Positions 11,018 to 52,027 of a DNA stretch of 64,000 nt are shown in pieces. The DNA is from a virus, in IMG/VR virus record IMGVR_UViG_3300037107_000081, positions 11,034-75,033 of that record; one strand, written 5' to 3'. Under the pieces are notes generated by a model. It did no database searches and was not told where the DNA came from. It saw only the letters and a list, made by a program, of their open reading frames with translations. Position numbers and translations under genes: made by a program. Positions within the stretch are counted from its first letter, which is position 1; every line of letters starts with the position of its first letter.

Positions 11018-11038
11018 TGGCTTCTTCTAAGGAAATGA

Positions 11039-22592: not shown

Positions 22593-23006
22593 ATGAAAAA
22601 TAAAATAGAAACAGTTGATTTTTTAAAAGACATTATTGATTCCGCTAGTAAGCAAGATATTAAAACAATGTATGAGTATTTAAACGATAAATTTGAATCA
22701 GTACAAAAATTAAAAATGATTGTTGAATTAAATGATGAAAAAATCAACCTATATAAAGAACAAGAAGCTTTACCTACTACACAGGATATTATTAAGCAAT
22801 TGATTTGTTGTTTGCAATTTCAAATCAGAGTTCAAGAGTTGTGTTCACTTTACCCTCTAGACTCAACTAATAATAATTATTCTCAGTATGTTTCTAAAGC
22901 AAGAGAAACTGCGGGATATATAGGAACAGCAATATCAGCACTTTCTCGTATTAATTTAGATTTAGGGTTCAACGAGGATTCTACACCATTAATTTTCAAA
23001 CAATAA
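22593..23006 (+). CDS. Hypothetical protein
   Basis: 137 aa, AGGAG RBS, followed by a terminator. Confidence 0.6.
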   Translation: MKNKIETVDFLKDIIDSASKQDIKTMYEYLNDKFESVQKLKMIVELNDEKINLYKEQEALPTTQDIIKQLICCLQFQIRVQELCSLYPLDSTNNNYSQYVSKARETAGYIGTAISALSRINLDLGFNEDSTPLIFKQ

Positions 23007-24837: not shown

Positions 24838-26706
24838 ATGAAAGCTGCAGAGGTAGGTTTTTCGGGTTTATTTAATCAATTTCGTGACAATATACAACGC
24901 ATTGATCCGGTATATTTTTGTTCAAGATATTTAGCTATAGATGGTAAGCCGTTACAATTAGAGGGAACTGGATATAAACCATTCTCTGATATTTATAGAT
25001 ACATAGCTCTTAAAGCAATTGAGCCAAACGCAAAGCCAATTGTATTAGTAAAAGGACGGCAAGTAGGGGCAACGGTAATGGCTGCTGCTCTTGAATGTTA
25101 TTTTAGTGCGTGTGGATCTTTTGGTGTAAATGAACGACCACCAGCACGTATGATGCATTTATTTCCTACGTTATCACTAGCTGCAGCATATACAAAAGAC
25201 AAGCTGGATCCAATGATTAGTAGTGCGTTGCCGGTTCCAGGACTTATGAAGAGTAATGGTCTTTTGAAATCTTATATGGAGGCTAGGTTAGACGCAAGCA
25301 GCCCGACTAACAATAACATGCATTTCAAAAAATTCATGTTTGGAAATCAGATTTGGATTGAATCTACTGGTTTAGATGGCGACAGAATTCGTGGTCGTAC
25401 GTGCGATATTAATTTTTTCGACGAGGTTCAGGATATGTCGGACACTGCAATTGGTGCAGCGACTAAAATCTTAGCACAGTCACGCTATGGAGCACCAGGC
25501 GAAGGTGTTCAGGTTTACTACGGAACCCCTAAAACAAAAGGCGGCTCTTACTGGAATATGTGGCAAAACTCATCGCAAAATTACTTTCATTTGCGTTGTG
25601 AAAAATGTGGCAAGTATTTTCCATTGTATCATCCCAGCATAAATTGGGAAGAAGTGTGGGTTTATGGTTTAACTGTTAAGTGCACAGAATGCAGTCATGA
25701 ACAAGATAAACTTGAAGCTCAGGAACGTGGTAAATGGATCCCGCTTAATGAGCCAGATAAATGCGATTTTGTTGGTTATCACATAAATCAATTATACATT
25801 CCACATTTCACCAGAGAGACAATAGAAAAAGCCAAGCCGGAACGAAGCCCAATTAATACTGAGCGCGTTTATATGAATGAAGTTCTTGGTGAGTTTTATG
25901 ATGGAGAAGGTGGAACAATTACCGCTCAAGAGATTCGGGATAAATGTATTGATAAAGGTCGTAAAATGCCCAAGTTTATTTATCCAGAACAGAATAAGAG
26001 AGTTTATGCAGGATTCGACTGGGGACAAAGAGGAGCGCTTGAACAAATAGCCGGAAGAGGAAGAAAAGGCTCTTATAGTTGTGCGGTTATACTTACGGTT
26101 TCTGATAATTTATTTAATGTGGAATTTGCTACTAGATTACTCAGACCAGATCCAGAAACTAAAATGGGTACTGTTGAGGAGATGTTTAGGCGCTACAATA
26201 TGGCATTATCTGTTGGTGATATTGGTGATGCTTATGATTTAACTCATAAATTGCAAAGGGTTTATGACGAGAAGTTTTTGGCATCGCGTTCTTCTCATAA
26301 AGTTAATGGCCATATAAAATATTCCAATGATGAATGGCCAAAAACAATTGTATTCGAGAAGGATTATTATATTTCAGAGGTATTGGGATTGCTTAAAGAG
26401 GGTAGAATTAAATTTCCTGGTGGTAGTTATGACCGTATTGAATGGATGATTGAGCATTGTGCAAGTATGGATATTAAGGTTACCAGGGATAAATCAGGCG
26501 AACCATTAAAGAAATATGTAAAAGGATCTGGGGCAAACGACGGGTTAATGGCCTTGTTGAATGCTTATTTGGCCTGGAAATTCGATGTAACTCAAGGTTT
26601 TACGATTGCTAATCCACAACACATGAAATATGACTTGGCCACAAAAGGTAGTCAGGTTCAGGCGGTTCTTGGCTTTGTTCCTAGAATGTTTGGAGGCCGC
26701 GGATAG
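24838..26706 (+). CDS. terL: Terminase large subunit (lambda GpA-like)
   Basis: KGRQVGAT, DRIRG, FFDEVQD (Walker B), GTP, CEKC/CTEC, GYHINQL, EVLGEFY, GFDWG nuclease motif. Confidence 0.88.
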   Translation: MKAAEVGFSGLFNQFRDNIQRIDPVYFCSRYLAIDGKPLQLEGTGYKPFSDIYRYIALKAIEPNAKPIVLVKGRQVGATVMAAALECYFSACGSFGVNERPPARMMHLFPTLSLAAAYTKDKLDPMISSALPVPGLMKSNGLLKSYMEARLDASSPTNNNMHFKKFMFGNQIWIESTGLDGDRIRGRTCDINFFDEVQDMSDTAIGAATKILAQSRYGAPGEGVQVYYGTPKTKGGSYWNMWQNSSQNYFHLRCEKCGKYFPLYHPSINWEEVWVYGLTVKCTECSHEQDKLEAQERGKWIPLNEPDKCDFVGYHINQLYIPHFTRETIEKAKPERSPINTERVYMNEVLGEFYDGEGGTITAQEIRDKCIDKGRKMPKFIYPEQNKRVYAGFDWGQRGALEQIAGRGRKGSYSCAVILTVSDNLFNVEFATRLLRPDPETKMGTVEEMFRRYNMALSVGDIGDAYDLTHKLQRVYDEKFLASRSSHKVNGHIKYSNDEWPKTIVFEKDYYISEVLGLLKEGRIKFPGGSYDRIEWMIEHCASMDIKVTRDKSGEPLKKYVKGSGANDGLMALLNAYLAWKFDVTQGFTIANPQHMKYDLATKGSQVQAVLGFVPRMFGGRG

Positions 26707-26791: not shown

Positions 26792-28702
26792 ATGATCGAT
26801 ATTAATAATGAAAGAACCAGGGCACAGGAACTAATTGAAAAAAACCGTAAATTAGTATCTAGAGCGGCAACCATAATGTCAAATAATATGGCATTGTCTG
26901 GTATTCCTGAAATTTCTAATCGAATGGCGCGTGGGGTTAGTGAGGAGCGCCGAGAATTGATGGAAATGCAACTTGAGGCTGGTGAATTCAGGGAGCAAGG
27001 ATCTGGTTTTTCAGGAGCATCTAGAGACCGTTCAGTTAAGAAATCACAAACAGAATTAGGCCTTGTAGCTCATAATGGAAAAAACCTATACAAGATGGCA
27101 GCTGATGGAGGTGTTATCTCTGGTAGCGGTGGCGGATGGCGAGGTAGTAATGATTCAGTTAGACAGGTTCCGGAAGTTTATTCTCCTTTATGGCTTAATT
27201 CAAATTTAAACTTACCAAGAGATCGTCCAACAATTAATGCTTGGAGTCGTAGTTTTTTTGCATTAAATCCCATTGTTCATAATGCAATAACACTACATTC
27301 AACATATCCAATTGCAAAACTAAATATCAAATCAAAGAATCCTAAGGTTGAGAAGTTTTTTTCTCAGATGTCAGAAGAAATAGATTTGATGAATATTGCC
27401 GTACTAGCCGCTCAGGAATATTGGATTCTTGGAGAGGCTTTTATTTATGGCGAATTAGATGAGAGCAAGGGTAGTTGGAGTCGGTTGATGATTCTAAACC
27501 CTGATTATGTTAATGTTCAGAGAAGTGTAATTGCAGCAGAACCAATTATTAGTTTGCGCCCTGATGAAAACCTTAGACGTGTAGTAATGGGTAATCAACC
27601 ATCGGATCTGCAACAACGCAAACAACTTGATCCGTCTATTATTGAGCATGTTCGTCGTAATGAGAATATTCCACTAAATAACTTCTATGTTCATCATATG
27701 GCTCGTAGAATTTCGCCTTATGAGATTCGTGGAACGGGCTTGATTGTAAGTTGTTTTAGAGCCTTGATGTTATGGGACAAAATTCGCGAATCAAAGTTTG
27801 CACAAGCCGACAACATGGTTAATCCGCTGACACTTGTAAAGATTGGTGATGCAGATTTTCGCCCAGGCCCACAAGATCTTGAAAATTGGCGACATGTGTT
27901 CGAGGCGGGACAGTATGATCGCGATTTCAAAATTTTTACACATAATGCTGTAACGGTTGAGCGTATTGGTTATGGCCAAGGTATTTATGATACTTCAGCT
28001 GACATAACACAATTAATTAAAGAAATTTATATTGGTTTGATGGTGCCGTCTGTAATTATGGATGGCAGTGATACGACTTATGCGACTGGTTCTGTAGCAT
28101 TGGATGTTTTGCGTCAGAGATATATGCAATTCCGCCAGATGATGACTACTTGGTTGAAGAGAAAGATTTTTGCTCCAATTGCTCAGATTCAAGATTTTTA
28201 TGAATATGTAGATGGTGAAAAAACTTTGATTGTTCCTGAAATTGACTGGAACCATATGTCTTTGTTTGATATGGATAGTTACATTCAAAACATGGTTAAT
28301 CTTTCTCAGGGTCAAGGTGAAACTCCAAAGCGCGTTTCATTGCAGACTTTATATAGAAGCTTGGGTCTTGAATATGAGGAAGAGCAGAGAAAGATTCGTT
28401 ATGAAGATATTCAAGATGCAATTAGGACCAGAGAGCTTGCTGCTATGGCTAAGTATGATCTTCATGAATTGAAATCTCTTAATCCGGGTGATGAAATTGA
28501 GGAGCCTTCTGATACACCGGTTCCAGGAGAAAGCCCGTATATAACCCCACAAGGTGATGAGTCAGAAGGTGGAATGGGTGGTGGAATAGGACCAGGAGCA
28601 CCAAGCGGACCATCAATGCCAGGATCACCACCTCCATCTCCAATTGGCGGAGGCGGACCAAAACCGGCAGCTCCAAAGCCAGCAAGCCCACCTTCACCAT
28701 AA
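26792..28702 (+). CDS. Portal protein
   Basis: Follows TerL; NPIVHNAI..H...P, EYWILGEAF, LNPDYV, H.AR..SPY..RG...I, IY.GL.VP; Pro/Gly-rich tail. Confidence 0.8.
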   Translation: MIDINNERTRAQELIEKNRKLVSRAATIMSNNMALSGIPEISNRMARGVSEERRELMEMQLEAGEFREQGSGFSGASRDRSVKKSQTELGLVAHNGKNLYKMAADGGVISGSGGGWRGSNDSVRQVPEVYSPLWLNSNLNLPRDRPTINAWSRSFFALNPIVHNAITLHSTYPIAKLNIKSKNPKVEKFFSQMSEEIDLMNIAVLAAQEYWILGEAFIYGELDESKGSWSRLMILNPDYVNVQRSVIAAEPIISLRPDENLRRVVMGNQPSDLQQRKQLDPSIIEHVRRNENIPLNNFYVHHMARRISPYEIRGTGLIVSCFRALMLWDKIRESKFAQADNMVNPLTLVKIGDADFRPGPQDLENWRHVFEAGQYDRDFKIFTHNAVTVERIGYGQGIYDTSADITQLIKEIYIGLMVPSVIMDGSDTTYATGSVALDVLRQRYMQFRQMMTTWLKRKIFAPIAQIQDFYEYVDGEKTLIVPEIDWNHMSLFDMDSYIQNMVNLSQGQGETPKRVSLQTLYRSLGLEYEEEQRKIRYEDIQDAIRTRELAAMAKYDLHELKSLNPGDEIEEPSDTPVPGESPYITPQGDESEGGMGGGIGPGAPSGPSMPGSPPPSPIGGGGPKPAAPKPASPPSP

Positions 28703-31716: not shown

Positions 31717-32021
31717 GCATAGAAAGTGAATTAGCATCTATTTGTAAAGATATTAGGTTACTTGGTGATAATAAGTTAACCAATGATGCTATTTGTGCTT
31801 ACGCTGCCCTAACTGATACTGAAAATCCACGACCAGACCTATCATATTCGTATATTATTAGGAAGTTGCGTAAAGGTGATGATGATAGACGTTTGAAATT
31901 CCAAAAAGCTTTTAAGAAGGCGTTTGATAGTGCTTTATATGAAGATGTTGAAGATCCAGACGCTGTTGCTTTGATGGTTGCAATGAAGGCTATTGATTTC
32001 AAGGATGAGAATGCCAGCTAG
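31713..32021 (+). CDS. Hypothetical protein
   Basis: GTGA overlap, 102 aa. Confidence 0.6.
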   Translation: MSIESELASICKDIRLLGDNKLTNDAICAYAALTDTENPRPDLSYSYIIRKLRKGDDDRRLKFQKAFKKAFDSALYEDVEDPDAVALMVAMKAIDFKDENAS

Positions 32022-33057
32022 ATTTGCCAAAGTAACCAAAGATTTATTTAGGGGTGGTTGTCCATCGCTTAAAGATAATGATATTGAATCTTTAAAGCGT
32101 ATGGGAATAAATAAAATTGTAAGTCTTGATGAAGAGTGTGGTGAGCGTATAAAAGAAAAGTGTAATGAGCTGGGTATTCATCAAATTATATGGGGATTGG
32201 GTGCAGGCAATGATCCTAAAGTTGCTGCATTAAAAAAGAGAATTGTTCCAACGCTTACTCATGGTGGCCCAACGTATGTTCATTGCTTACATGGAAAAGA
32301 TCGTACAGGAATGACAGTGGCTATGTATCGTGTTTATTCTGGATGGTCTGTTGATAAAGCATTAAAAGAAGCAGCACAATTCGGAATGGGAACTCACCTA
32401 CCACCAGATGTTGCTAAAACTTATTATGATGCTGTAAAAGAATTCGCAAAAGATCTGGAGGAAGATAAAAGTAATGCGTTAGATGCTGTTTCTTTAACTA
32501 GGATGACTAATTCATTTGGCCCAGAAAACCCCGCTGTTGATGATATGACAATTTCCAGACCGGTTAATTTTAATCTTCCACCAGGCACAGATATTGAATT
32601 TAGTCAGCTTAGTAGAATTGCTTCAGCTAAAATTTATATTAAGTGCAATTCAGGAGATTTATTAAAACCAGGATCTTTTTGGTGGGGCTCAAAAGAATTG
32701 GCAAACAAAAATCCTATAAATTCTTCTGGTAAATTATTTTCGGCCAATTTAATATCATCATCTAAATTTGAAAAGTTCGACGGGAAGGTAAATAAAAATC
32801 TAATAAACAATGTATTAACAAGAGATATTGATGTAGCTATTCTTCGTGATAATCAATATTTAATTATATGCCCAAGCTCTTTAATAGATATTCAAGAAGA
32901 AAATGATGATATAAATGATTTGGTAGAAGTAGGAATGAGAGATAATTCTACCGATTATACGTATGCTTATCCTGGAAGTGGAAGTGGTTTAGGTGGAATG
33001 CCAGATGGAGCAGCAGGTTTTGTACAATTACCGTTTTCAGGAATAGGTCAGGTTTAG
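32011..33057 (+). CDS. Tyr/dual-specificity (Cys-based) phosphatase with C-terminal extension
   Basis: LFRGG.P, L...GI..IVSL and the P-loop HCLHGKDRTG. Confidence 0.85.
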   Translation: MPARFAKVTKDLFRGGCPSLKDNDIESLKRMGINKIVSLDEECGERIKEKCNELGIHQIIWGLGAGNDPKVAALKKRIVPTLTHGGPTYVHCLHGKDRTGMTVAMYRVYSGWSVDKALKEAAQFGMGTHLPPDVAKTYYDAVKEFAKDLEEDKSNALDAVSLTRMTNSFGPENPAVDDMTISRPVNFNLPPGTDIEFSQLSRIASAKIYIKCNSGDLLKPGSFWWGSKELANKNPINSSGKLFSANLISSSKFEKFDGKVNKNLINNVLTRDIDVAILRDNQYLIICPSSLIDIQEENDDINDLVEVGMRDNSTDYTYAYPGSGSGLGGMPDGAAGFVQLPFSGIGQV

Positions 33058-33720: not shown

Positions 33721-33879
33721 ATGTTAATCAAAACTGGTGATGCAGAAATTATTGGTGTCATTGATTCGAAGTCGGAAGATATCGAAAGCAAGAATAGCGA
33801 AGTTGTAGCGTCAACACTCTTAGATATGGCCAAGAAACGTATTTCTGAATCGGATCAAGATAAAGGCTTGGAGAACTAA
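33721..33879 (+). CDS. 52-aa protein MLIKTGDAEIIGVID...
   Basis: Fills the gap; TAATG overlap with the protease gene; not in the ORF track. Confidence 0.55.
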   Translation: MLIKTGDAEIIGVIDSKSEDIESKNSEVVASTLLDMAKKRISESDQDKGLEN

Positions 33880-36800
33880 TGTTGATAAAACTCGGCGAGT
33901 CTGTTTGTATTAGACCTGAAGATATACGACCAGTTGAAAAATTGGTTAGTGATTCTGATTTAGATATTGAAAACAGAATGTATAGATTTGCTCAGGAACT
34001 TAAAGTTATTGCTCCTAAAGCAAAAGACTTTCTATATTTTACTGCCGTTATGATGCATGCTGCTGAGGCTGCCTGTGTTAATGATGATGGATCTCCAAAG
34101 AAAACAGCATCGGGTGAGGTTGTTTCTGCTACATGGGAAAAGGTTGGAGAGGGCGTCAAGTGGGTTTGTAATGATCCAAATATCAAATGTTACCGTAACA
34201 ATAATAGAGATATTTTTCCAGAATATGAATTAAAGTTAGCGTATAAGAAATGGATAGGTCGTCCGTTATGCCTCGATCATCAATCACAGTCGGTTGATAA
34301 GATTCGAGGCGTTATTGTTGATACTGTATATGATGATCGTAGAAAGAGGTTAATTGCTCTCTGTGCCCTTGATTCAAAAAATTATAGTGATTTAGCCGAT
34401 AAGGTTACTAGTGGTGTTGCTAATAACGTATCGATGGGAACCGGGGTTGGCAGGGCTGTGTGTTCAGAATGCCAACGAGCCGCTAGAACCGAAAAAGACT
34501 TTTGCCAGCACATGAAGAATAAGAGTTGTTATGGCGAAATTAACTTGGAACTGTCTCCGTTAGAACTTTCTTTAGTAGTTGCCGGAGCCGATCCAAAAGC
34601 CAAAGTTAAGCATATTATTGCCAGTGATATTGCTAAAGCTGCGGAATTACTTTCTGATTATTTGCATGTTAAAGAAGCGGTATCTAGGCAAGATCTAACA
34701 TCTATACAGGAAGACCTAAAGAGCCTAATGGGTAAGATTGAAGCTATGGCTCATGATAGCGATAAGAAAGACGAGAGTGATGCGGTTGGTCCGACTCGCT
34801 CTAGATGGTCGATGGATGAAGTCAGTAATGAACCATCGACTCAGTTTAATGTTCCTGAGGCATTCCCAACTTACGCCTCAGAGCTACAAATGGCAATTTT
34901 GGGAGCTCAAACAAAACTGGCAAGCTTGCAGGACAATATACTTAGACTATCTAATAATAGTAACGAGGAATCAATCATGACTACAAAAGAAGCATATTTT
35001 CAAGGTACAGAGGAACCAAAACCAGGACAGAAGCAATACGCTGTGGATCCGTTGAATGAGAAAGCCAGACTATTGGACAAGAATCTACATGGCCCAGCTC
35101 CATTTCCAAACACTGGATCTGTAGATGGTATGTATCCTGGTGATGATAAAACCAAGAAAGATTTGCAGCGCCTAGCGGATGAGCATGAGCGTGCAATGTT
35201 CCGTGAAGCTGCTTTGAAGAAGGCCAAGGAACAATTGAAGCAAGGATATTTCCAGGGAACGGAAGAGCCAACTCCTGGTAAGCCACAATATACAAAAGAT
35301 CCGCTTAATGAGAAGGATCGTTTATTGGATAAGACCATGGTTGGCGAAAAACCGTTCCCAGGAGTAGGCAAGGTTGATGGTCTTTATGGTGACGATCTTG
35401 CTGAAAAAGAAAAGCTTTCACGAGCATCTTTGAAGGCTAGATTTGAGAAGGTTGCTCTTCCAGATGGTCGTATTAATAAAGGCGCTTCTAATTGGGTTGT
35501 TCTAGCTAATGGAAAACCAATTCTTCAAGCTTCTGTTGCTCAGATCACTCGTGGTAATGAAGAGCATTTGTATGATGCGATTGCTACCGAGCGTTTTGGT
35601 AGGTCACTATTAAATCGTATTCAGACTGAAGGTTTTGAAGCTACTGCTAATGATTTACTCAAGACTGCACAAGCTCCAGCCGCTCCTCCTCCAGCCCCAG
35701 AAGCTGCGCCAGCCGGTGATATGCCCCCACTTGAGCCACCAAAGGATGTTGCTAGTGAGGGTGGAGAACCAGGTGAAATTGTAGATGATATTCAGTCGCT
35801 TGTTGATGAAATGGAAGGCAAGATTAGTGATCTTAAGGATAAGGTTAGCGGACCTGTTTCTGAGGACGCTGAAGGTCTTGGTGATGTTCCTCCGGCAGGT
35901 GATGAGGAATTCGCGGTTCCAGCTGGTGGTGCTCCTGCTCCTAAGAGCGCATCACAGCTTCAATCAATGCGTAAACGTGTAAATGTGATGTTGCAGGATG
36001 GTATTGATGAGACAATTACTTCTTTATCTAAGCATGTAAATGAACTAAAGACTGCGCAAAAAGTTTATAAAGAATCATATGCATCAATGACTGAAGAGCA
36101 ACGTGATTATATTAACGATCTAACAATTTCGGCCGTGAAAGATGCTAAGGCTCAACTTAATGATACCAATAGGTTGATGGAAGCTGTTGTTAAGTATGCT
36201 ACAGGAACAGCTGGTGTTGAAAAGCGCGCACATGAAGAGGGTCTCAATACCGATGAACTTCTTGATGAAATTGAAGGTGGAAAGGGTGGTGATGACACTT
36301 ATCTAGACAATGCTGCATTTGAAGATGAGTCACCAGAAGCCACACCAGAAACCGGAAAAATGAAAGATTTCTTGTCTGAACTTGGAATTGATTCTGAGAA
36401 GGATAATGATGCTGATATGGATGGAACATTAGCTAATGGTACCCCTATTAGTATTAACGATAAGGGAGAGGCATTACTTGGAAAGAGTACAGGAGGAGCA
36501 AAATTGGAATTATCAACTAAACAAGCGCGTGCTGAGGTACGTGTGAAGCTTGCCGAAAAGGGCTTGCTTGGGTTCAACGAATTGTCTAATGATGCTCATC
36601 CAGGTGGCAGTGTAGATGCTGTTTCTGCCGGTAATTTGGATGTAAAACCAAGTGTTCCGGGGTCTGCATTCCATGTGGCCAAGGATATTAAAGACGCAAT
36701 GACCGAATTGGCAAATATGCCTCCTCGTGTTCGTAAGCAGGCTGAGGTTATTAATGAGCTTGTTTCTTCGGGTAAGATGAGTGCTGAGTCTGTTGATGGT

Positions 36801-37241
36801 CTTGTGGCTCATGGTATTGATCCTGATGCAGTCAAGTATTGGAAGGAATTGTATGGTCAGGGTGATTCGCAGTCGAAGGAATTCGCAACAGAATTAACCA
36901 AGGAACATGCCAACGCCAAGAAAGCTGAGGAAATGGAACAATACAAGGGTAAGCTAAAGAGAGCTTATCAGGTTGCACAGCAAATGATTGTTAAGGGAAT
37001 GATTAGTGAAAACCAATTAGATTCCCAGGTTGAAGATATTATGAATTGGAATGATGCTGGTTTTGAAAGCATCAAGAATATTCTATCAAGACAAGCTTCA
37101 ATCAGTAAGCAAGCATCCTTACCGGTTGTTGGTCTTTTGGACTCAGGCTCGGTAATTCTTCCAGCGGCACAAAGCGCAACACAAGAAAGTATAAATATCA
37201 AAGGTTTGTTTGATAATCACTTTGCGTCGAGGAAATTCTAA
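33879..37241 (+). CDS. Prohead protease / scaffold polyprotein
   Basis: RNNNRDIF..EL, W.G.P..LDH, RGVIVD, VSMG, CSEC..FCQH, ELSLV..GADP.A in the N-terminal ~250 aa; long coiled-coil/acidic remainder. Confidence 0.78.
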   Translation: MLIKLGESVCIRPEDIRPVEKLVSDSDLDIENRMYRFAQELKVIAPKAKDFLYFTAVMMHAAEAACVNDDGSPKKTASGEVVSATWEKVGEGVKWVCNDPNIKCYRNNNRDIFPEYELKLAYKKWIGRPLCLDHQSQSVDKIRGVIVDTVYDDRRKRLIALCALDSKNYSDLADKVTSGVANNVSMGTGVGRAVCSECQRAARTEKDFCQHMKNKSCYGEINLELSPLELSLVVAGADPKAKVKHIIASDIAKAAELLSDYLHVKEAVSRQDLTSIQEDLKSLMGKIEAMAHDSDKKDESDAVGPTRSRWSMDEVSNEPSTQFNVPEAFPTYASELQMAILGAQTKLASLQDNILRLSNNSNEESIMTTKEAYFQGTEEPKPGQKQYAVDPLNEKARLLDKNLHGPAPFPNTGSVDGMYPGDDKTKKDLQRLADEHERAMFREAALKKAKEQLKQGYFQGTEEPTPGKPQYTKDPLNEKDRLLDKTMVGEKPFPGVGKVDGLYGDDLAEKEKLSRASLKARFEKVALPDGRINKGASNWVVLANGKPILQASVAQITRGNEEHLYDAIATERFGRSLLNRIQTEGFEATANDLLKTAQAPAAPPPAPEAAPAGDMPPLEPPKDVASEGGEPGEIVDDIQSLVDEMEGKISDLKDKVSGPVSEDAEGLGDVPPAGDEEFAVPAGGAPAPKSASQLQSMRKRVNVMLQDGIDETITSLSKHVNELKTAQKVYKESYASMTEEQRDYINDLTISAVKDAKAQLNDTNRLMEAVVKYATGTAGVEKRAHEEGLNTDELLDEIEGGKGGDDTYLDNAAFEDESPEATPETGKMKDFLSELGIDSEKDNDADMDGTLANGTPISINDKGEALLGKSTGGAKLELSTKQARAEVRVKLAEKGLLGFNELSNDAHPGGSVDAVSAGNLDVKPSVPGSAFHVAKDIKDAMTELANMPPRVRKQAEVINELVSSGKMSAESVDGLVAHGIDPDAVKYWKELYGQGDSQSKEFATELTKEHANAKKAEEMEQYKGKLKRAYQVAQQMIVKGMISENQLDSQVEDIMNWNDAGFESIKNILSRQASISKQASLPVVGLLDSGSVILPAAQSATQESINIKGLFDNHFASRKF
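34995..35410 (+). repeat. Two ~52-aa internal repeats YFQGTEEP.PG..QY..DPLNEK.RLLDK...G..PFP..G.VDG.Y
   Basis: Copies start at 34995 and 35247. Confidence 0.85.
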
Positions 37242-37252
37242 TATTCTGGGCC

Positions 37253-37277
37253 GGGCGGGGTTATAAATGCTCCGCCC
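37253..37277 (+). other. GC-rich intergenic hairpin without a U tail
   Basis: GGGCGGGG-loop-CTCCGCCC. Confidence 0.5.
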
Positions 37278-37295
37278 ATCCATAAGAGGTAAAAT

Positions 37296-38219
37296 ATGTC
37301 TACTAATAAATATGATATTGCTTCAGCTATGAATGGGATAATAAGCGACCCAGTTAATCAATCAATTTTCTCAAGGCCACAACCCCTTACCAAGACAGCT
37401 GCAAAGAAAGATGATACCGCTGATAAGGCTAAGGCTGAAAAAGAAAAAGCTAAGGAAAAGGCTGCTAAAGAGAAGGAAAAGGAAAGGGCTGCTAAGGAAA
37501 AAGCCAAAGAACAGGCTGCTAAAGCTAAGGCCAAGAAAAAGGCTTCAACTAAATATGAAGCTTGCGTTATTGGTTTGTGCAAAATTTCTGAAATGCTAGA
37601 TGAGGCTGGTTTGTCAAAGTCGTCTTCATATGCATTGCTAGCACTTAACGATTTGATTAGTACTGCCGCAAAGAAGAAGGAAGAAAAAGAGGAAAAGGCT
37701 AAGGGAAAGAAAGATGAAAAGGGCAAGGGCAAGAAAGAAGAGCCCAAGGACGAAAAAGCTAAGGGCAAGAAAGCACCTCCGTTTATGAAGAAGGATGAAA
37801 AAGGCGACAAGGATAAGAAGGTAAAGAAGGCAGATTATGGTGTTAAGCATGAGCTAACTCCAGGTTATGTAAATCCTTGGAATGACAAATCAACCAAGTC
37901 TTTTCCTGGCGATCCTATGAATTTTTCGCTTGCTCCTGAAAAACCAGCTGCGGCTCTAAAATCAATTACACACACTGATTCTGCATTTCGTCCAGGTGAC
38001 CCGCTAAATCAAAATGGTGATTATGTTGCTAGCGCAGATGATTGTGAATACGCTGACGATGAAGAAGTAAGTAATTGTGATGATTTTGATACTTTGTCAA
38101 ATCAGATCGATCCTGATTCTTTGTGGGAAACCGAAGTTACAGCTGATGAAGAGAAGACTTCTTTGCAGAAACTTGCTGAGGAATTGGAGGCAACCAAGAG
38201 TTTTTTAGCCGCAAAGTAA
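37296..38219 (+). CDS. Lys/Glu/Ala-rich putative internal head (DNA-condensing-like) protein; zero-frame product
   Basis: KAKAEKEKAKEKAAKE repeats; KTAA, STAA, KLAE motifs. Confidence 0.7.
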   Translation: MSTNKYDIASAMNGIISDPVNQSIFSRPQPLTKTAAKKDDTADKAKAEKEKAKEKAAKEKEKERAAKEKAKEQAAKAKAKKKASTKYEACVIGLCKISEMLDEAGLSKSSSYALLALNDLISTAAKKKEEKEEKAKGKKDEKGKGKKEEPKDEKAKGKKAPPFMKKDEKGDKDKKVKKADYGVKHELTPGYVNPWNDKSTKSFPGDPMNFSLAPEKPAAALKSITHTDSAFRPGDPLNQNGDYVASADDCEYADDEEVSNCDDFDTLSNQIDPDSLWETEVTADEEKTSLQKLAEELEATKSFLAAK

Positions 38220-38698
38220 TAGCCGGTAAAAAAGATCCTAAGGCCAAAGTTAGGAATAGACCGGATCCAATTTTCAGTAGTAAACATTCTAAAGTAAAAG
38301 ATGATAAAGATCACTTTCCGATTGATACTATTGAATGCGGCAGAAACGCTCTTGCTCAATGTGAAAAATATGACTCGGCCCCTACGTGGTGGAAAGGATC
38401 CTTAAAAGAACTTCAAAATTCCGTATCAAGGGCTGTACATAATGAGTATCCAAGTATTAAGAGTGAAAATAAAAAGAAATCTAGTCACGAGGTATTATTA
38501 GAGGTTTTAGGTAGTAGTAAAAAAAGACCGGTTCCATTCTGGGATATAGGAAAAATGACAGATCCAATGCTTGATGAATGGGAAGCTATTTTACAAGGAC
38601 AAAAGGAATTCAGAGACAATCCATTATACGATATTTTCTTAAAAGACATTGCTACTGAAAAAAGAAATAGACAAATGGATTTAAAGCGAGCAGTATGA
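38207..38698 (+). CDS. Start-less -1 frame ORF, predicted frameshift extension of the 37296 gene
   Basis: 163 sense codons (SRKVIAGKKDPKAKVRNR...DHFPI...GRNALA...PTWWKGS...YPSI); stop overlaps the next ATG (ATGA 38695-38698). Confidence 0.75.
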   Translation, partial: SRKVIAGKKDPKAKVRNRPDPIFSSKHSKVKDDKDHFPIDTIECGRNALAQCEKYDSAPTWWKGSLKELQNSVSRAVHNEYPSIKSENKKKSSHEVLLEVLGSSKKRPVPFWDIGKMTDPMLDEWEAILQGQKEFRDNPLYDIFLKDIATEKRNRQMDLKRAV

Positions 38699-38910
38699 AA
38701 AATTTTACTACAGATATTGAAAATAATATGGCCTTTTTTATGGGAGGAGATCTTAAGAAATCTCTAAACAAAGATGAGGCCATATGCTCGTTGAATAAAG
38801 CACGAAATCTTCTTCAGAATGCCGGATTGGAAACTCTTTGTGTTGCCATTGATGCGATTGTTAAAAAGGCAGAGTTTATTGACGAAAGTAACATCGAGGT
38901 AACCATATGA
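38695..38910 (+). CDS. Small hypothetical head-module protein
   Basis: 71 aa, ATGA couplings at both ends. Confidence 0.6.
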   Translation: MKNFTTDIENNMAFFMGGDLKKSLNKDEAICSLNKARNLLQNAGLETLCVAIDAIVKKAEFIDESNIEVTI

Positions 38911-48908: not shown

Positions 48909-49919
48909 ATGTCTTTATTTGATACCCATGGTGGTATGAATGCTTCGTCTGTAAGAGACGCATTGAATACGTTAGTTAAATACGCAGCGATCATAGAAGA
49001 AGGTCAGCCCTCGAATATGGCGCTATCAGGTCAACCAAGCCTGAATGATGAGAAACGAGATGAGCTTATCGCCAGAGCAATTATGACCCAGGAAGGGAAG
49101 CTTGCTCTTGCTCAGGCTATGGCAAACCCAATTCGTAGAAACCTTGATTATCAGGGAATTGCACGTCGTCTGTTGGTCGTAGATCCACTTCCACAAGGAG
49201 TAGATCCGAAGTATGAGCGTGATATCGATGTCGCAGCTACCGTTATTTCCAGCAATGGTACCGGTGGTGAAAGCCGCGTGTTCGGTGATCGTATCGTAAT
49301 TCCTACCTTCGAACTTTACTCGAACCCAACCGTTCGCATTTCAGAAGTTCGTCGTCGTAGATTCAACGTGATTGATCGTGCGGTCCAGAAGGCACGTCAA
49401 GAAATAATGGCCCAGGAAGATGCCAACATTTTCGCAGCCATTGATGCAGCTTCAACTGTTGAGAATGCCGCTCAGGATATTACTGATGGTGGAATGCTTA
49501 AGAGAGACTTGGTCGATATTAAGGTCCAGATTGATCGTTGGGACCTGGTAACGACAAAGTATTTCATGAATATCAATGAGTTTACTGATATTCTTAACTG
49601 GGCATCCGGCGGTGGCCAGGGCGCAGGTGGTGGAGAAATTGATCCAGTTACACAGCGCGAAATTCTCCAGACCGGTCTCTATGCTCACATTTGGGGCGCG
49701 GACATTATGGTGTCAAAGATTGTTCCACCAGGAACCGTTTATGGAGCGGCCGATCCAGAGTTTGTAGGTGTTTTGCCCATAAGACAAGACATCGAGGTAA
49801 TTCCGGCCGATGAGCCGAAGCAACTCAAATTGGGTTGGGTTGTGAGTGAAGAAATCGGCATTGGTATCGTGAATCCACGAGCCGTTGCTGTATCGCGCAA
49901 GTCAACGATTGTTCAATAA
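48909..49919 (+). CDS. Major capsid protein (HK97 fold)
   Basis: LAQAMANPIRRNLDYQGIARRLLVVDPLPQG, FEL.SNP.V, QEDANIF, IWGADI..SK.VP.G, GWV..E.IG....NPRAV; strong RBS and downstream terminator. Confidence 0.85.
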   Translation: MSLFDTHGGMNASSVRDALNTLVKYAAIIEEGQPSNMALSGQPSLNDEKRDELIARAIMTQEGKLALAQAMANPIRRNLDYQGIARRLLVVDPLPQGVDPKYERDIDVAATVISSNGTGGESRVFGDRIVIPTFELYSNPTVRISEVRRRRFNVIDRAVQKARQEIMAQEDANIFAAIDAASTVENAAQDITDGGMLKRDLVDIKVQIDRWDLVTTKYFMNINEFTDILNWASGGGQGAGGGEIDPVTQREILQTGLYAHIWGADIMVSKIVPPGTVYGAADPEFVGVLPIRQDIEVIPADEPKQLKLGWVVSEEIGIGIVNPRAVAVSRKSTIVQ

Positions 49920-50098: not shown

Positions 50099-52027
50099 GT
50101 GAATAATAAAATAATAGAGTTATATGAATCTGGAAAATCAAGTTATGAGGTTAGCAAATTAACTGGTGTTTCTGCTACTCAAGTGCGTCGAATATTAAAT
50201 AAATATTCTGTAAAAATGAAAGATAATAAGACGCCAGATAAAATTGAAGATCAAATAATTGAGAGATATACAAACGGAGAATCATCAGAAAAAATATCTG
50301 CTGATCTTGGGATTAATGGAACAACCGTTTGTAGAATATTAAAAAGACGTGGTATTGATCTTAGGTCTCCAAGTCAAAGGCATCGTATATTACCATTATT
50401 TGAAGATTACCTTGATAATATGGATACTGAGGAAAAAGCATATTTTCTTGGGTTTATGTATGCTGATGGAAATGTTAGCTCTTCAATGGGAGCCTTTTCG
50501 TTAACTTTACATAATAAAGATATAGAAATATTACAAAGGTTTTCTAATTTGTTTTATGGTGAAGATAGAACTGTTTCAAGAAAAGAGCCATATGTTACAT
50601 TATCTATTTATAGTCTTCATATGAAAGAAAAACTTATTAGTTATGGTTGTATGCCAAATAAAACATTTAAAACAAAGATGCCTACGTTTTTGCGACAAGA
50701 TTTAGTTAGGCATTTTATTCGTGGTTTATATGATGGTGATGGTTGTATTTCTACGTCAAGTAATATGATTAGGGTAATATTAACTGGAAGCTTAACATTT
50801 CTTGAAGAAGTTAAAGATGCTATATTGTCTTATAAACCAAGTATACAACCCATTATAAGATTAACCAAACATAAAACAAATGTTGCAGATATGGTTATGG
50901 GAAAACAAGCTGATTGTGTTGATTTTCTTAATTGGATTTATCAAGATGCAACAATATATCTTAGTAGAAAGTATATATCATATCATAGCGTTTTGGAATT
51001 GTGTAAGCCTCCAAAAAATTACGGATCAACAAATATAGTATCATATAATGGACAAAAACTAACTAGTGAGTTTGTATCATCTATACCTGTTGCTGAACGT
51101 GAAAATATAGCACAATATTTACTAAGTTATTTTAGACGTCAAGGTTTTCCATATCAAACATTTTATAAAGTAGAAATGGAAGAAGATTTTAATAAGCTAT
51201 GTAATCTTGAAATTAAAATAGAAAGTGAAATAAAAACACTACCAGAATGTGGACTTAAAGCATTCAAACATTTTTGCCCACATTTTCATGAAGTTAAAAA
51301 TAATAAAATGTTAAGTATGGTTGAAGTATTTAATGATGATGGTTTGTTAATGGATGTGATTAGAAATCGTTTAGGAATTACTTATAAAGAAACGTTTAAT
51401 ATTACGGGAAATATGATTAGGCAGGGCATTAGAAATTCTAGAAGTGGTTTTGCAGCCAGTCTATTTAAACCATCTTTAGCTAAGGGTGTATATGATAAAT
51501 TTGTACCTGATAATGGTGTTGTATTAGATATATCTGCTGGGTTTGGGCAAAGAATGTTAGGGGCAATGGCTAGTAAAAAGGTTAGTAAATATATTGGTAT
51601 TGATCCTTGGGATAAGCAAATAGAGGCACTTTCTAAAATAAAAGAATTCTTTAATTCTGATAAGGTAGAGTTGCACTGTGCTGGTTCTGAGAATTTTTAT
51701 TTGCCAGAAAACTCTATTGATTTTTGTTTTTCATCACCACCATTCTTTGATAAGGAAATTTATACCGGTGATGTAAATCAAGCATGTCATAATCGTAGTT
51801 TTTCTGAATTTATTGAGGATTGGTGGGTTCCAACTGCTACCATGGTATATAAATCATTAAAGCCAAATTCATTATTTGTATTAAATATGAATTTATCAAT
51901 GGCTAAAATAATGATTGAAAGAGTAGAAAAGTTATTTAAGGAAATTGATCAGTTTTATATTTCTTATTTAAGGAATTATATTTCTTCAGAAGGTAAAGAT
52001 ACTTTTTTTGTTTTGAAGAAGATTTAA
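50099..52027 (+). CDS. HTH + LAGLIDADG homing-endonuclease domain fused to an amino-DNA methyltransferase
   Basis: Two HTHs; YFLGFMYADG and FIRGLYDGDG; then FKPS.AK, DISAGFGQR (motif I), YIGIDP, FSSPPFF..E.Y (motif IV). Confidence 0.8.
   Translation: MNNKIIELYESGKSSYEVSKLTGVSATQVRRILNKYSVKMKDNKTPDKIEDQIIERYTNGESSEKISADLGINGTTVCRILKRRGIDLRSPSQRHRILPLFEDYLDNMDTEEKAYFLGFMYADGNVSSSMGAFSLTLHNKDIEILQRFSNLFYGEDRTVSRKEPYVTLSIYSLHMKEKLISYGCMPNKTFKTKMPTFLRQDLVRHFIRGLYDGDGCISTSSNMIRVILTGSLTFLEEVKDAILSYKPSIQPIIRLTKHKTNVADMVMGKQADCVDFLNWIYQDATIYLSRKYISYHSVLELCKPPKNYGSTNIVSYNGQKLTSEFVSSIPVAERENIAQYLLSYFRRQGFPYQTFYKVEMEEDFNKLCNLEIKIESEIKTLPECGLKAFKHFCPHFHEVKNNKMLSMVEVFNDDGLLMDVIRNRLGITYKETFNITGNMIRQGIRNSRSGFAASLFKPSLAKGVYDKFVPDNGVVLDISAGFGQRMLGAMASKKVSKYIGIDPWDKQIEALSKIKEFFNSDKVELHCAGSENFYLPENSIDFCFSSPPFFDKEIYTGDVNQACHNRSFSEFIEDWWVPTATMVYKSLKPNSLFVLNMNLSMAKIMIERVEKLFKEIDQFYISYLRNYISSEGKDTFFVLKKI

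Follow-up and report, generated by a model that had tools for sequence, protein, structure and literature searches.

How can a ribosome reach a conserved open frame that offers it no start codon? This question is raised by a locus in the stretch of 64,000 nucleotides analysed here (the window), which covers positions 11,034 to 75,033 of the IMG/VR virus record IMGVR_UViG_3300037107_000081; all positions below are those of the window. On the plus strand, an open reading frame (ORF) for a Lys/Glu-rich, acidic protein of 307 residues (37296..38219), with a good Shine-Dalgarno (SD) sequence, AGAGG, before its ATG, is followed in the -1 frame by a long stretch that reads as protein (38207..38698, +). 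In our view the junction is very probably a programmed -1 ribosomal frameshift site, from which both the 307-residue protein and an isoform of 467 residues would be made. These two products had been proposed from the letters of the window alone (below, the sequence-only reading), and comparison with related phages now supports them strongly.

The geometry of the site was confirmed in full by re-reading. The -1 frame is open from 38180, just after the TGA that closes it upstream and sets the 5′ limit of a possible shift window (38177..38179, +), to a TGA at 38696-38698 that overlaps the ATG of the next gene at 38695. It shares 12 codons with the 0 frame. The 307-residue ORF ends as AGT TTT TTA GCC GCA AAG TAA TAG, in which the slippery heptamer T TTT TTA (38201..38207, +), the proposed shift site, is in phase as X XXY YYZ and precedes the tandem stops TAA TAG (38217..38222, +) by three codons. 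An SD-like GGAGG (38186..38190, +), the candidate 5′ stimulator, stands exactly 10 nt upstream of the heptamer, and a candidate stem-loop (38223..38264, +) follows, in which CCGGU/ACCGG would enclose UCCUAA/UUAGGA (CCGGT at 38223-27 with ACCGG at 38260-64, TCCTAA at 38236-41 with TTAGGA at 38250-55). After the shift, 163 codons precede the TGA, so that the predicted long product counts 304 + 163 = 467 residues. As claimed from the sequence, a start comes only late in this frame: its first ATG, GTG or TTG is the ATG at 38555, 116 codons past the heptamer.

We call the 0-frame product the N module. The -1 frame adds a conserved domain of 75 residues, the D module (DPKAKVRNR...KVKDDKDHFPI...RNALA...APxWWxGSL...YPSI; 38234..38458, +), and a C-terminal tail, the T module (38480..38695, +), directly 5′ of the conserved next gene. 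The sole ATG of the -1 ORF (38555, with AGGAAAA 5′ of it) opens at a conserved MTD motif of the T module, and a T peptide of 47 residues could also be made separately from it. No promoter or terminator consensus was seen on the plus strand within the gene, and an Rfam search (E <= 1) over 37900-38800 returned no frameshift element.

A miscounted T run could create the same picture from a genome in which the two frames are simply fused. Homopolymers are error-prone on some platforms, and two near-identical related phages, L003 and L031, differ in a poly-A run. Contigs X3, X5 and X7, which come from three other studies, nevertheless span 38201-38207 with no difference and no gap, and the same arrangement recurs in different samples, in the related loci L001, L002 (identical to L027) and L006 (identical to L007). 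These independent assemblies all give T6 and none carries a count that would fuse the frames, the outcome that the sequence-only reading had named as damaging. X3, X5 and X7 being contigs, rare variants would not show in them; within the limits of contig data we rule out a miscounted T run and give this explanation practically no weight. The sole RNA library with contigs on the window, run X10, has them at 38363-38803 and none over the slip site.

The related loci, all on other jumbo-phage contigs, were gathered by using the -1 peptide and the N-terminal protein as queries; a scan of metagenomes gave six loci. Two of them were seen twice: L002 and L027 are an IMG/VR entry and an independent NCBI whole-genome shotgun record, and L006 and L007 come from two metagenomes. 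L001, L002 and L006 have a layout identical to that of the window, with T TTT TTA in phase followed by GCN, a 0-frame stop one to three codons past the heptamer, and a domain that runs on in the -1 frame. Across the window and these three loci the codon just 5′ of the heptamer specifies S, D, G or G, yet its last base is always T. In the three relatives the -1 frame opens 0-16 codons 5′ of the heptamer and the overlaps range from 4 to 19 codons. In L001 it opens exactly at the heptamer (TGA TTT TTT), leaving an overlap of five codons, and in L006 one codon before it, leaving four; these short overlaps pin the shift to the heptamer, the only place of shift that the loci have in common. The alternative site A AAG (in GCA AAG TAA) was rejected because only the heptamer is common to the relatives: in L002 and L006 the 0-frame stop stands directly after TTA GCN.

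The offset between the two frames is equally constant. From the heptamer to a conserved GAYCC the distances are 26, 23, 23 and 35 nt in the four shift-type loci, all 2 mod 3, and 24 nt in L003 and L005, in which the domain lies in frame; the offset has thus been kept through further 3-nt indels. No start codon is shared by the four loci: L001, L002 and L006 have their first GTG within the conserved domain, and the window lacks it. The -1 frame stays open for 163 codons in the window and for 103-109 in the three others. Conservation of the SD, the heptamer and the frame offset had been put forward as a check, and the heptamer and the offset are indeed kept in L001, L002 and L006, whereas the SD is not conserved.

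Other relatives display the same modules joined differently. N and D are fused in one frame in L003/L004/L031, L005/L013, L008, L016 and L018, and these fusions indicate, by homology, that the downstream ORF is the C-terminal domain of the N-module protein and not a separate gene. Among them, L003 keeps the in-phase T TTT TTA and L005 has T TTT TTT; there a -1 slip would end after 4-8 codons (FFSR* and FFSLKGRW*, respectively). By analogy with dnaX (below), this suggests that both isoforms may be made in both configurations, that of L003 and L005 and that of the window. L022 and L023 carry stand-alone N genes without D, and at the place of the heptamer they have TTT CTT and CTC TTG, no heptamer being present. 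A distant ortholog, L102, with an N module of 428 residues, reaches D via an in-phase C CCA AAA, with an overlap of six codons and no start codon for 55 codons. The frameshift heptamer of phage A2 is reportedly also C CCA AAA. In L018, where N and D are in frame, AGT TTT TTA GTG TAA stands at the D|T junction and leads to a startless -1 tail of 93 codons, and in L030 GAT TTT TTA GGA TAA stands at the N|T junction, again followed by a -1 tail.

Three further loci drew our attention. In the near-identical phages L003 (3240-3290) and L031 (3310-3350), the run between the D domain and a small T ORF is A8 in the one and A9 in the other. The T ORF is read in frame +1 in L003 and in frame -1 in L031; the latter has an in-phase A AAA AAA, with the TAA within GA-TAA-AAA as the point from which the T frame is open. 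The run is a candidate site of poly-A slippage or frameshifting, or a sequencing difference. L085 (1930-2330) is a stand-alone D gene that seems to begin at an ATG (MSYMWEE) and, having no other start, meets an in-frame TGA ahead of KNKDLNV...DHFPI; the gene may be broken, or the stop may be recoded or read through. On the GC-rich contigs L109-L111 (1845-2189), a D domain without its N-terminal KDPKAKVRN part lies in the +1 frame relative to an upstream ORF of 181 residues and has a single, non-ATG start candidate, which may be another variant of recoding or fusion.

Is the hidden frame translated at all? Compared with the in-frame L003, the shift-type loci look like 1-nt deletions just past the heptamer, and L022 and L023 do without D entirely. 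One could thus imagine a fusion gene disabled by such a deletion, with D and T severed from the N module and left as an untranslated remnant. The way in which the D domain has diverged speaks otherwise. Over its 75 codons, the proportion of differing synonymous sites (pS) is 0.52-0.89 among the shift-type loci and that of nonsynonymous sites (pN) 0.03-0.17; the ratio of nonsynonymous to synonymous substitution rates (dN/dS) is 0.04-0.13 where dS is computable, synonymous sites being near saturation. The hidden -1 frame is therefore, on this comparative evidence, translated and under strong purifying selection. A remnant is moreover hard to reconcile with a frame open for 163 codons in the window and 103-109 in L001, L002 and L006, with an offset that survived further 3-nt indels, and with L023 of the same clade, where true loss of D took both the ORF and the heptamer. 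We regard a disabled fusion as very improbable.

If the frame is translated, it could still be expressed as a gene of its own, either because ribosomes re-initiate past the TAA or because they use a non-canonical start such as the ATA at 38219. The stop adjoins this candidate restart, bacterial ribosomes can re-initiate near a stop, and some other phages encode D as a small separate protein that has an ATG of its own (L009, L012, L014, P0011, P0013). Within the close homologs, by contrast, D either follows the same heptamer in the -1 frame or is joined to N in a single frame, so that the search for relatives carrying it as a separate gene, proposed along with the sequence-only reading, came out in favour of the shift. 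The codon at the ATA position varies (GTA in L002, ACA in L001), no ATG, GTG or TTG is met for 116 codons in the window, and in L001 the -1 frame opens at TTT TTT and contains no near-cognate start before the conserved KDPKAK. The protein sequence is also conserved 5′ of the first GTG, and relatives fuse N and D in frame. Independent initiation thus seems to us quite unlikely.

The main mechanistic rival is transcriptional slippage, in which RNA polymerase would add a U in the T6 run and the resulting U7 mRNAs would encode the fusion with no ribosomal shift. Slippage of this kind is used by some bacterial genes and insertion sequence (IS) elements (PMC5009743). In its favour, the site lies in a homopolymer, which reads T7 at the corresponding place of the in-frame L005, and the A8 versus A9 difference between L003 and L031 at the next module junction shows runs to be labile in this group. 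The run is, however, only 6 nt long, and documented runs of bacterial transcriptional slippage are about 7-9 nt or longer. All shift-type loci keep exactly T6 then A in X XXY YYZ phase, and L102 reaches the same domain via C CCA AAA, without a long run. We consider this rival disfavoured and improbable.

A shift on the ribosome could proceed as follows. Ribosomes on the 307-residue gene would reach UUU in the P site and UUA in the A site (codons 303-304), three codons before the tandem stops. Most would terminate there and release the 307-residue protein, presumably the major product; in a fraction, a slip of one base back on U UUU UUA would switch translation to the -1 frame, giving the junction ..K-S-F-L/F-S-R-K-V-I-A-G-K-K-D-P-K-A-K.. 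and a 467-residue isoform extended by a DUF6582-like domain and a short tail. The ratio of the two would be set by the weak heptamer, with probable help from the upstream GGAGG and possibly from the downstream stem. We infer that the shift is ribosomal, and likewise its efficiency, the roles of the stimulators and a head-internal function of the products. An argument from hungry codons was dropped because TTA is the commonest Leu codon of the window (27 per 1000); no tRNA genes were found in the window.

As to the stimulators, the GGAGG would form with the anti-SD a duplex of -9.3 kcal/mol, which is in the top 1% of random window positions, and similar elements occur in L006 (-8.6 kcal/mol) and L003 (-9.1 kcal/mol). 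Downstream, a stem of 8-9 bp (GGCAGCUGG/CCGGCUGCC) begins 7-8 nt past the heptamer in L001, L002, L006, L003 and L005. The stem of the window occupies the same position and is a partly retained form of it; a weak outer helix, AAAGU/AUUUU, would begin there 5 nt past the heptamer. When the stems are aligned, 85% of cells are paired, versus 15-52% with the partner slid. The stem is not formed in the heptamer-less in-frame loci L008 and L016, nor at the N|D junction of L018. GGAGG and the 3′ stem are, judged from these sequences, plausible but unproven stimulators.

Several observations weigh against the frameshift or restrict its reach. In-phase X XXY YYZ motifs (Y = A/T) are common in this AT-rich genome: they occur at 102 of 19,518 codon positions in the ORFs of the window (0.52%), which makes the chance of one within the 12-codon overlap about 6%, and the heptamer alone is unremarkable; the non-randomness comes, as far as sequences tell, from its conservation in relatives. 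Elsewhere in the window, the in-phase heptamers close to stops (52003, 47398, 41667, 1684 and 3207) would give -1 products of just 3-10 codons. The SD-like element is absent in L001 (-0.2 kcal/mol) and L018 (-0.6 kcal/mol), and consequently the stimulation by an SD proposed in the sequence-only reading, strong as the GGAGG is in the window, L006 and L003, stays plausible only. Its 3′ stem fares similarly, since the pairings are present but the structure is weak in the window (-13.3 kcal/mol, z -1.7; 13 of 200 shuffles fold as well), and among the relatives the stem shows a single compensatory change and no significant covariation (63 of 500 shuffles). U UUU UUA is furthermore a poor shifter in E. 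coli, at 0.094% without a stimulator; with the stimulators of IS911 and IS3 it reaches 0.27% and 1.27%, the highest figure, about 1.3%, being that with a pseudoknot (PMC4066793; see also PMC5009743). Because of this weakness the long form is probably a minor species. Nor do the four N|D shift phages stand for four independent origins. In a tree of two conserved downstream genes, the window, L001, L002 and L006 form one clade that includes the domain-less L023 (support 82/82), which points to a single origin: the N|D frameshift appears to have arisen once, long ago, and to have been kept since, except in L023, where it disappeared along with the heptamer. Adding L102, L018 and L030 would bring the origins in the gene family up to four, but L030 is ambiguous, as an ATG stands nine codons into its -1 ORF, which might be a gene of its own.

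The coding strand of the window has just one more in-phase T TTT TTA, at 22619-22625, nine codons into the ORF 22593-23006, and TTTTTTA occurs 8 times on the plus strand versus 31 times on the minus strand.

Even with these reservations, conservation in the relatives leads us to regard the site as a real recoding site, and such sites have relatives elsewhere. The sequence-only reading held a shift in a putative internal head protein to be unusual, but it is not without parallel: -1 shifts that extend phage structural proteins are established for gene 10 of T7/T3, phage A2, SPP1 and lambda G/GT, and frameshifts in phage head genes have precedent in T7/T3 and A2 (PMC5009743, PMC5221750). In T7/T3 10A/10B and in the major head and tail proteins of Lactobacillus phage A2, as in the window, a heptamer lies a few codons before the stop of a virion-module gene, and a major short and a minor C-terminally extended form share their N-terminus, as proposed here (PMC5009743; PMC5221750). 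The window gene differs in encoding neither the major capsid protein (MCP) nor a tail protein, in its heptamer T TTT TTA, and in an extension that is DUF6582-like rather than capsid or immunoglobulin-like. In the lambda-type G/GT tail assembly chaperones, too, a morphogenesis gene of the phage makes two proteins in a fixed ratio by a conserved -1 shift (PMC5009743), whereas the window gene lies in the head module and not between tail tube and tape-measure genes.

A second parallel is dnaX (tau/gamma), in which an internal SD about 10 nt 5′ of the heptamer is combined with a 3′ stem-loop, and in which the long form is an in-frame or a shift product according to the species, with a 0-frame stop directly past the shift site (PMC5009743); this mirrors L003 and L005 versus the window. 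The dnaX heptamer is A AAA AAG (tRNA-Lys), the protein is unrelated and efficiency is about 50% in E. coli. The window site is no dnaX cassette but, by analogy, may work like one. HIV-1 gag-pol has the identical U UUU UUA and the same expected Leu/Phe heterogeneity at the junction (PMC5009743); with a eukaryotic ribosome, a different stimulator and no homology, the likeness is one of slip sequence only. Closer in kinship is Bacillus phage G, whose gene 22/23 (L033:12568-14237) is annotated as a joined coding sequence for an endolysin and carries GTA AAA AAG TAG, that is, an in-phase A AAA AAG, before a -1 ORF of 320 codons. It is a shift inside the head module, like that of the window, in an amidase/LysM gene not homologous to the window gene.

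What would the extension bring to the protein? The AlphaFold2 model of the D module has a predicted local distance difference test score (pLDDT) of 79, about 90 in the core, and consists of two short strands and two helices. Against the PDB it found no match by Foldseek at E <= 0.001, its best Z in a wide VIA-align comparison was 3.4, and a profile search of PDB sequences with the D domain gave no match. DUF6582 (PF20223), like the D module a small phage-associated domain, and one of unknown function, matches weakly in 9 of 37 D-module homologs (best E 6e-4); the D module of the window itself has no DUF6582 match even at E 1. In the nearest ESM Atlas clusters 17% of members carry DUF6582 (score 0.82), which we take as a lead only. 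At best, then, these matches make the D module a distant relative of DUF6582. The D family counts 624 representatives at 50% identity, with the domain N-terminal, in the middle or C-terminal in proteins of 100-1300 residues. Where the fusion partner has a recognisable domain, it is a prohead protease, Peptidase_S77 (P0130) or Mu-like_Pro (P0150), or else PG_binding_1 (P0132, P0151), which fits a role inside the head or in an ejected protein.

The T module is weakly similar to the shift-accessed tail of L018 and to the small post-D ORF of L003/L031 (E 6e-4 and E 7e-4). PHROG and Pfam scans of both predicted products (P0001, P0002) gave no match. The region (by blastn) and the two modules N and D (by tblastn) likewise matched nothing in 50,697 phage records, among which no annotated cultured homolog appears to exist; phage G and the INPHARED records yielded no homolog of N or D. 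The N module would be a scaffold-like or internal head protein, to judge by gene position and by its charged, low-complexity composition. The assignment of the gene to the head, made in the sequence-only reading, is thus supported by gene order and by domain fusions and not by homology to any known head protein.

The gene order in question is that of a head module. The source is a 75-kb IMG/VR virus record with an estimated completeness of 18%; the GC content of the window is 37% and all long ORFs are on the plus strand. A large terminase (24838-26706, +) and a portal (26792-28702, +) are followed by a protease-like protein of 1120 residues (33879-37241, +), of which residues 107-215 match head-maturation-protease PHROGs. 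The frameshift gene (0-frame ORF 37296-38219, +) comes between this gene and the major head protein (MCP; 48909-49919, +), with several small genes directly after it. At 54% identity, the MCP matches gp27 of Bacillus phage G (497 kb), the closest cultured relative of the window phage, and the N-terminus of the 1120-residue protein matches phage G gp19. By these two matches the window phage, recovered mainly from peat metagenomes, is an uncultured relative of phage G.

Three features of this neighbourhood may be noted in passing. In the interval between the portal and the protease-like gene, a protein of 354 residues (31993-33057) carries a phosphatase domain of the tyrosine/dual-specificity type (Y_phosphatase2, E 6.8e-10). 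Between the 1120-residue ORF and the frameshift gene, a gap of 54 nt holds a GC-rich hairpin (GGGCGGGG..CTCCGCCC, 37245-37285) without a T tail, which could be an attenuator or a processing site. Adjoining the MCP gene on its 3′ side, an ORF of 642 residues (50099-52027) combines endonuclease, HNH-like and methyltransferase PHROG matches and looks like a mobile-element-like insertion in the structural module.

A broader interpretation is possible, which we advance tentatively and hold to be rather doubtful as a whole. The heptamer might be a maintained isoform switch at module boundaries in a head-protein family of phage G-like jumbo phages. L003 and L005 would then make the long form by default and truncate it by slippage, and the clade of the window would do the reverse; one-base indels would swap the major isoform, and other junctions, D|T and N|T, would employ the same device again (L018, L030 and the poly-A run of L003/L031). 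On the same supposition, the DUF6582-like domain would be a module for prohead-core targeting or for cargo, whose copies per capsid would be set by the efficiency of recoding.

The practical consequences are more immediate. Gene callers miss the long protein, and the entries of relatives are truncated calls of about 90 residues that begin at an internal GTG (P0003-P0009, P0012) and probably represent more loci of the frameshift type. Consequently, a conserved head-module protein is mis-annotated throughout this group of uncultured giant phages akin to phage G. The novelty lies in the gene family, in the apparent use of U UUU UUA in a bacterial virus, and in a well-sampled series of relatives in which D is fused, shifted or absent. 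In this natural comparative series D is absent, in frame or reached by a -1 shift, with two heptamers and three junctions. It should be useful for studying the origin of frameshift sites, the evolution of isoform ratios and the behaviour on bacterial ribosomes of U UUU UUA, which is weak by E. coli data. Finally, the association of the DUF6582-like domain with prohead proteases and scaffold-like proteins provides a first lead to its function.

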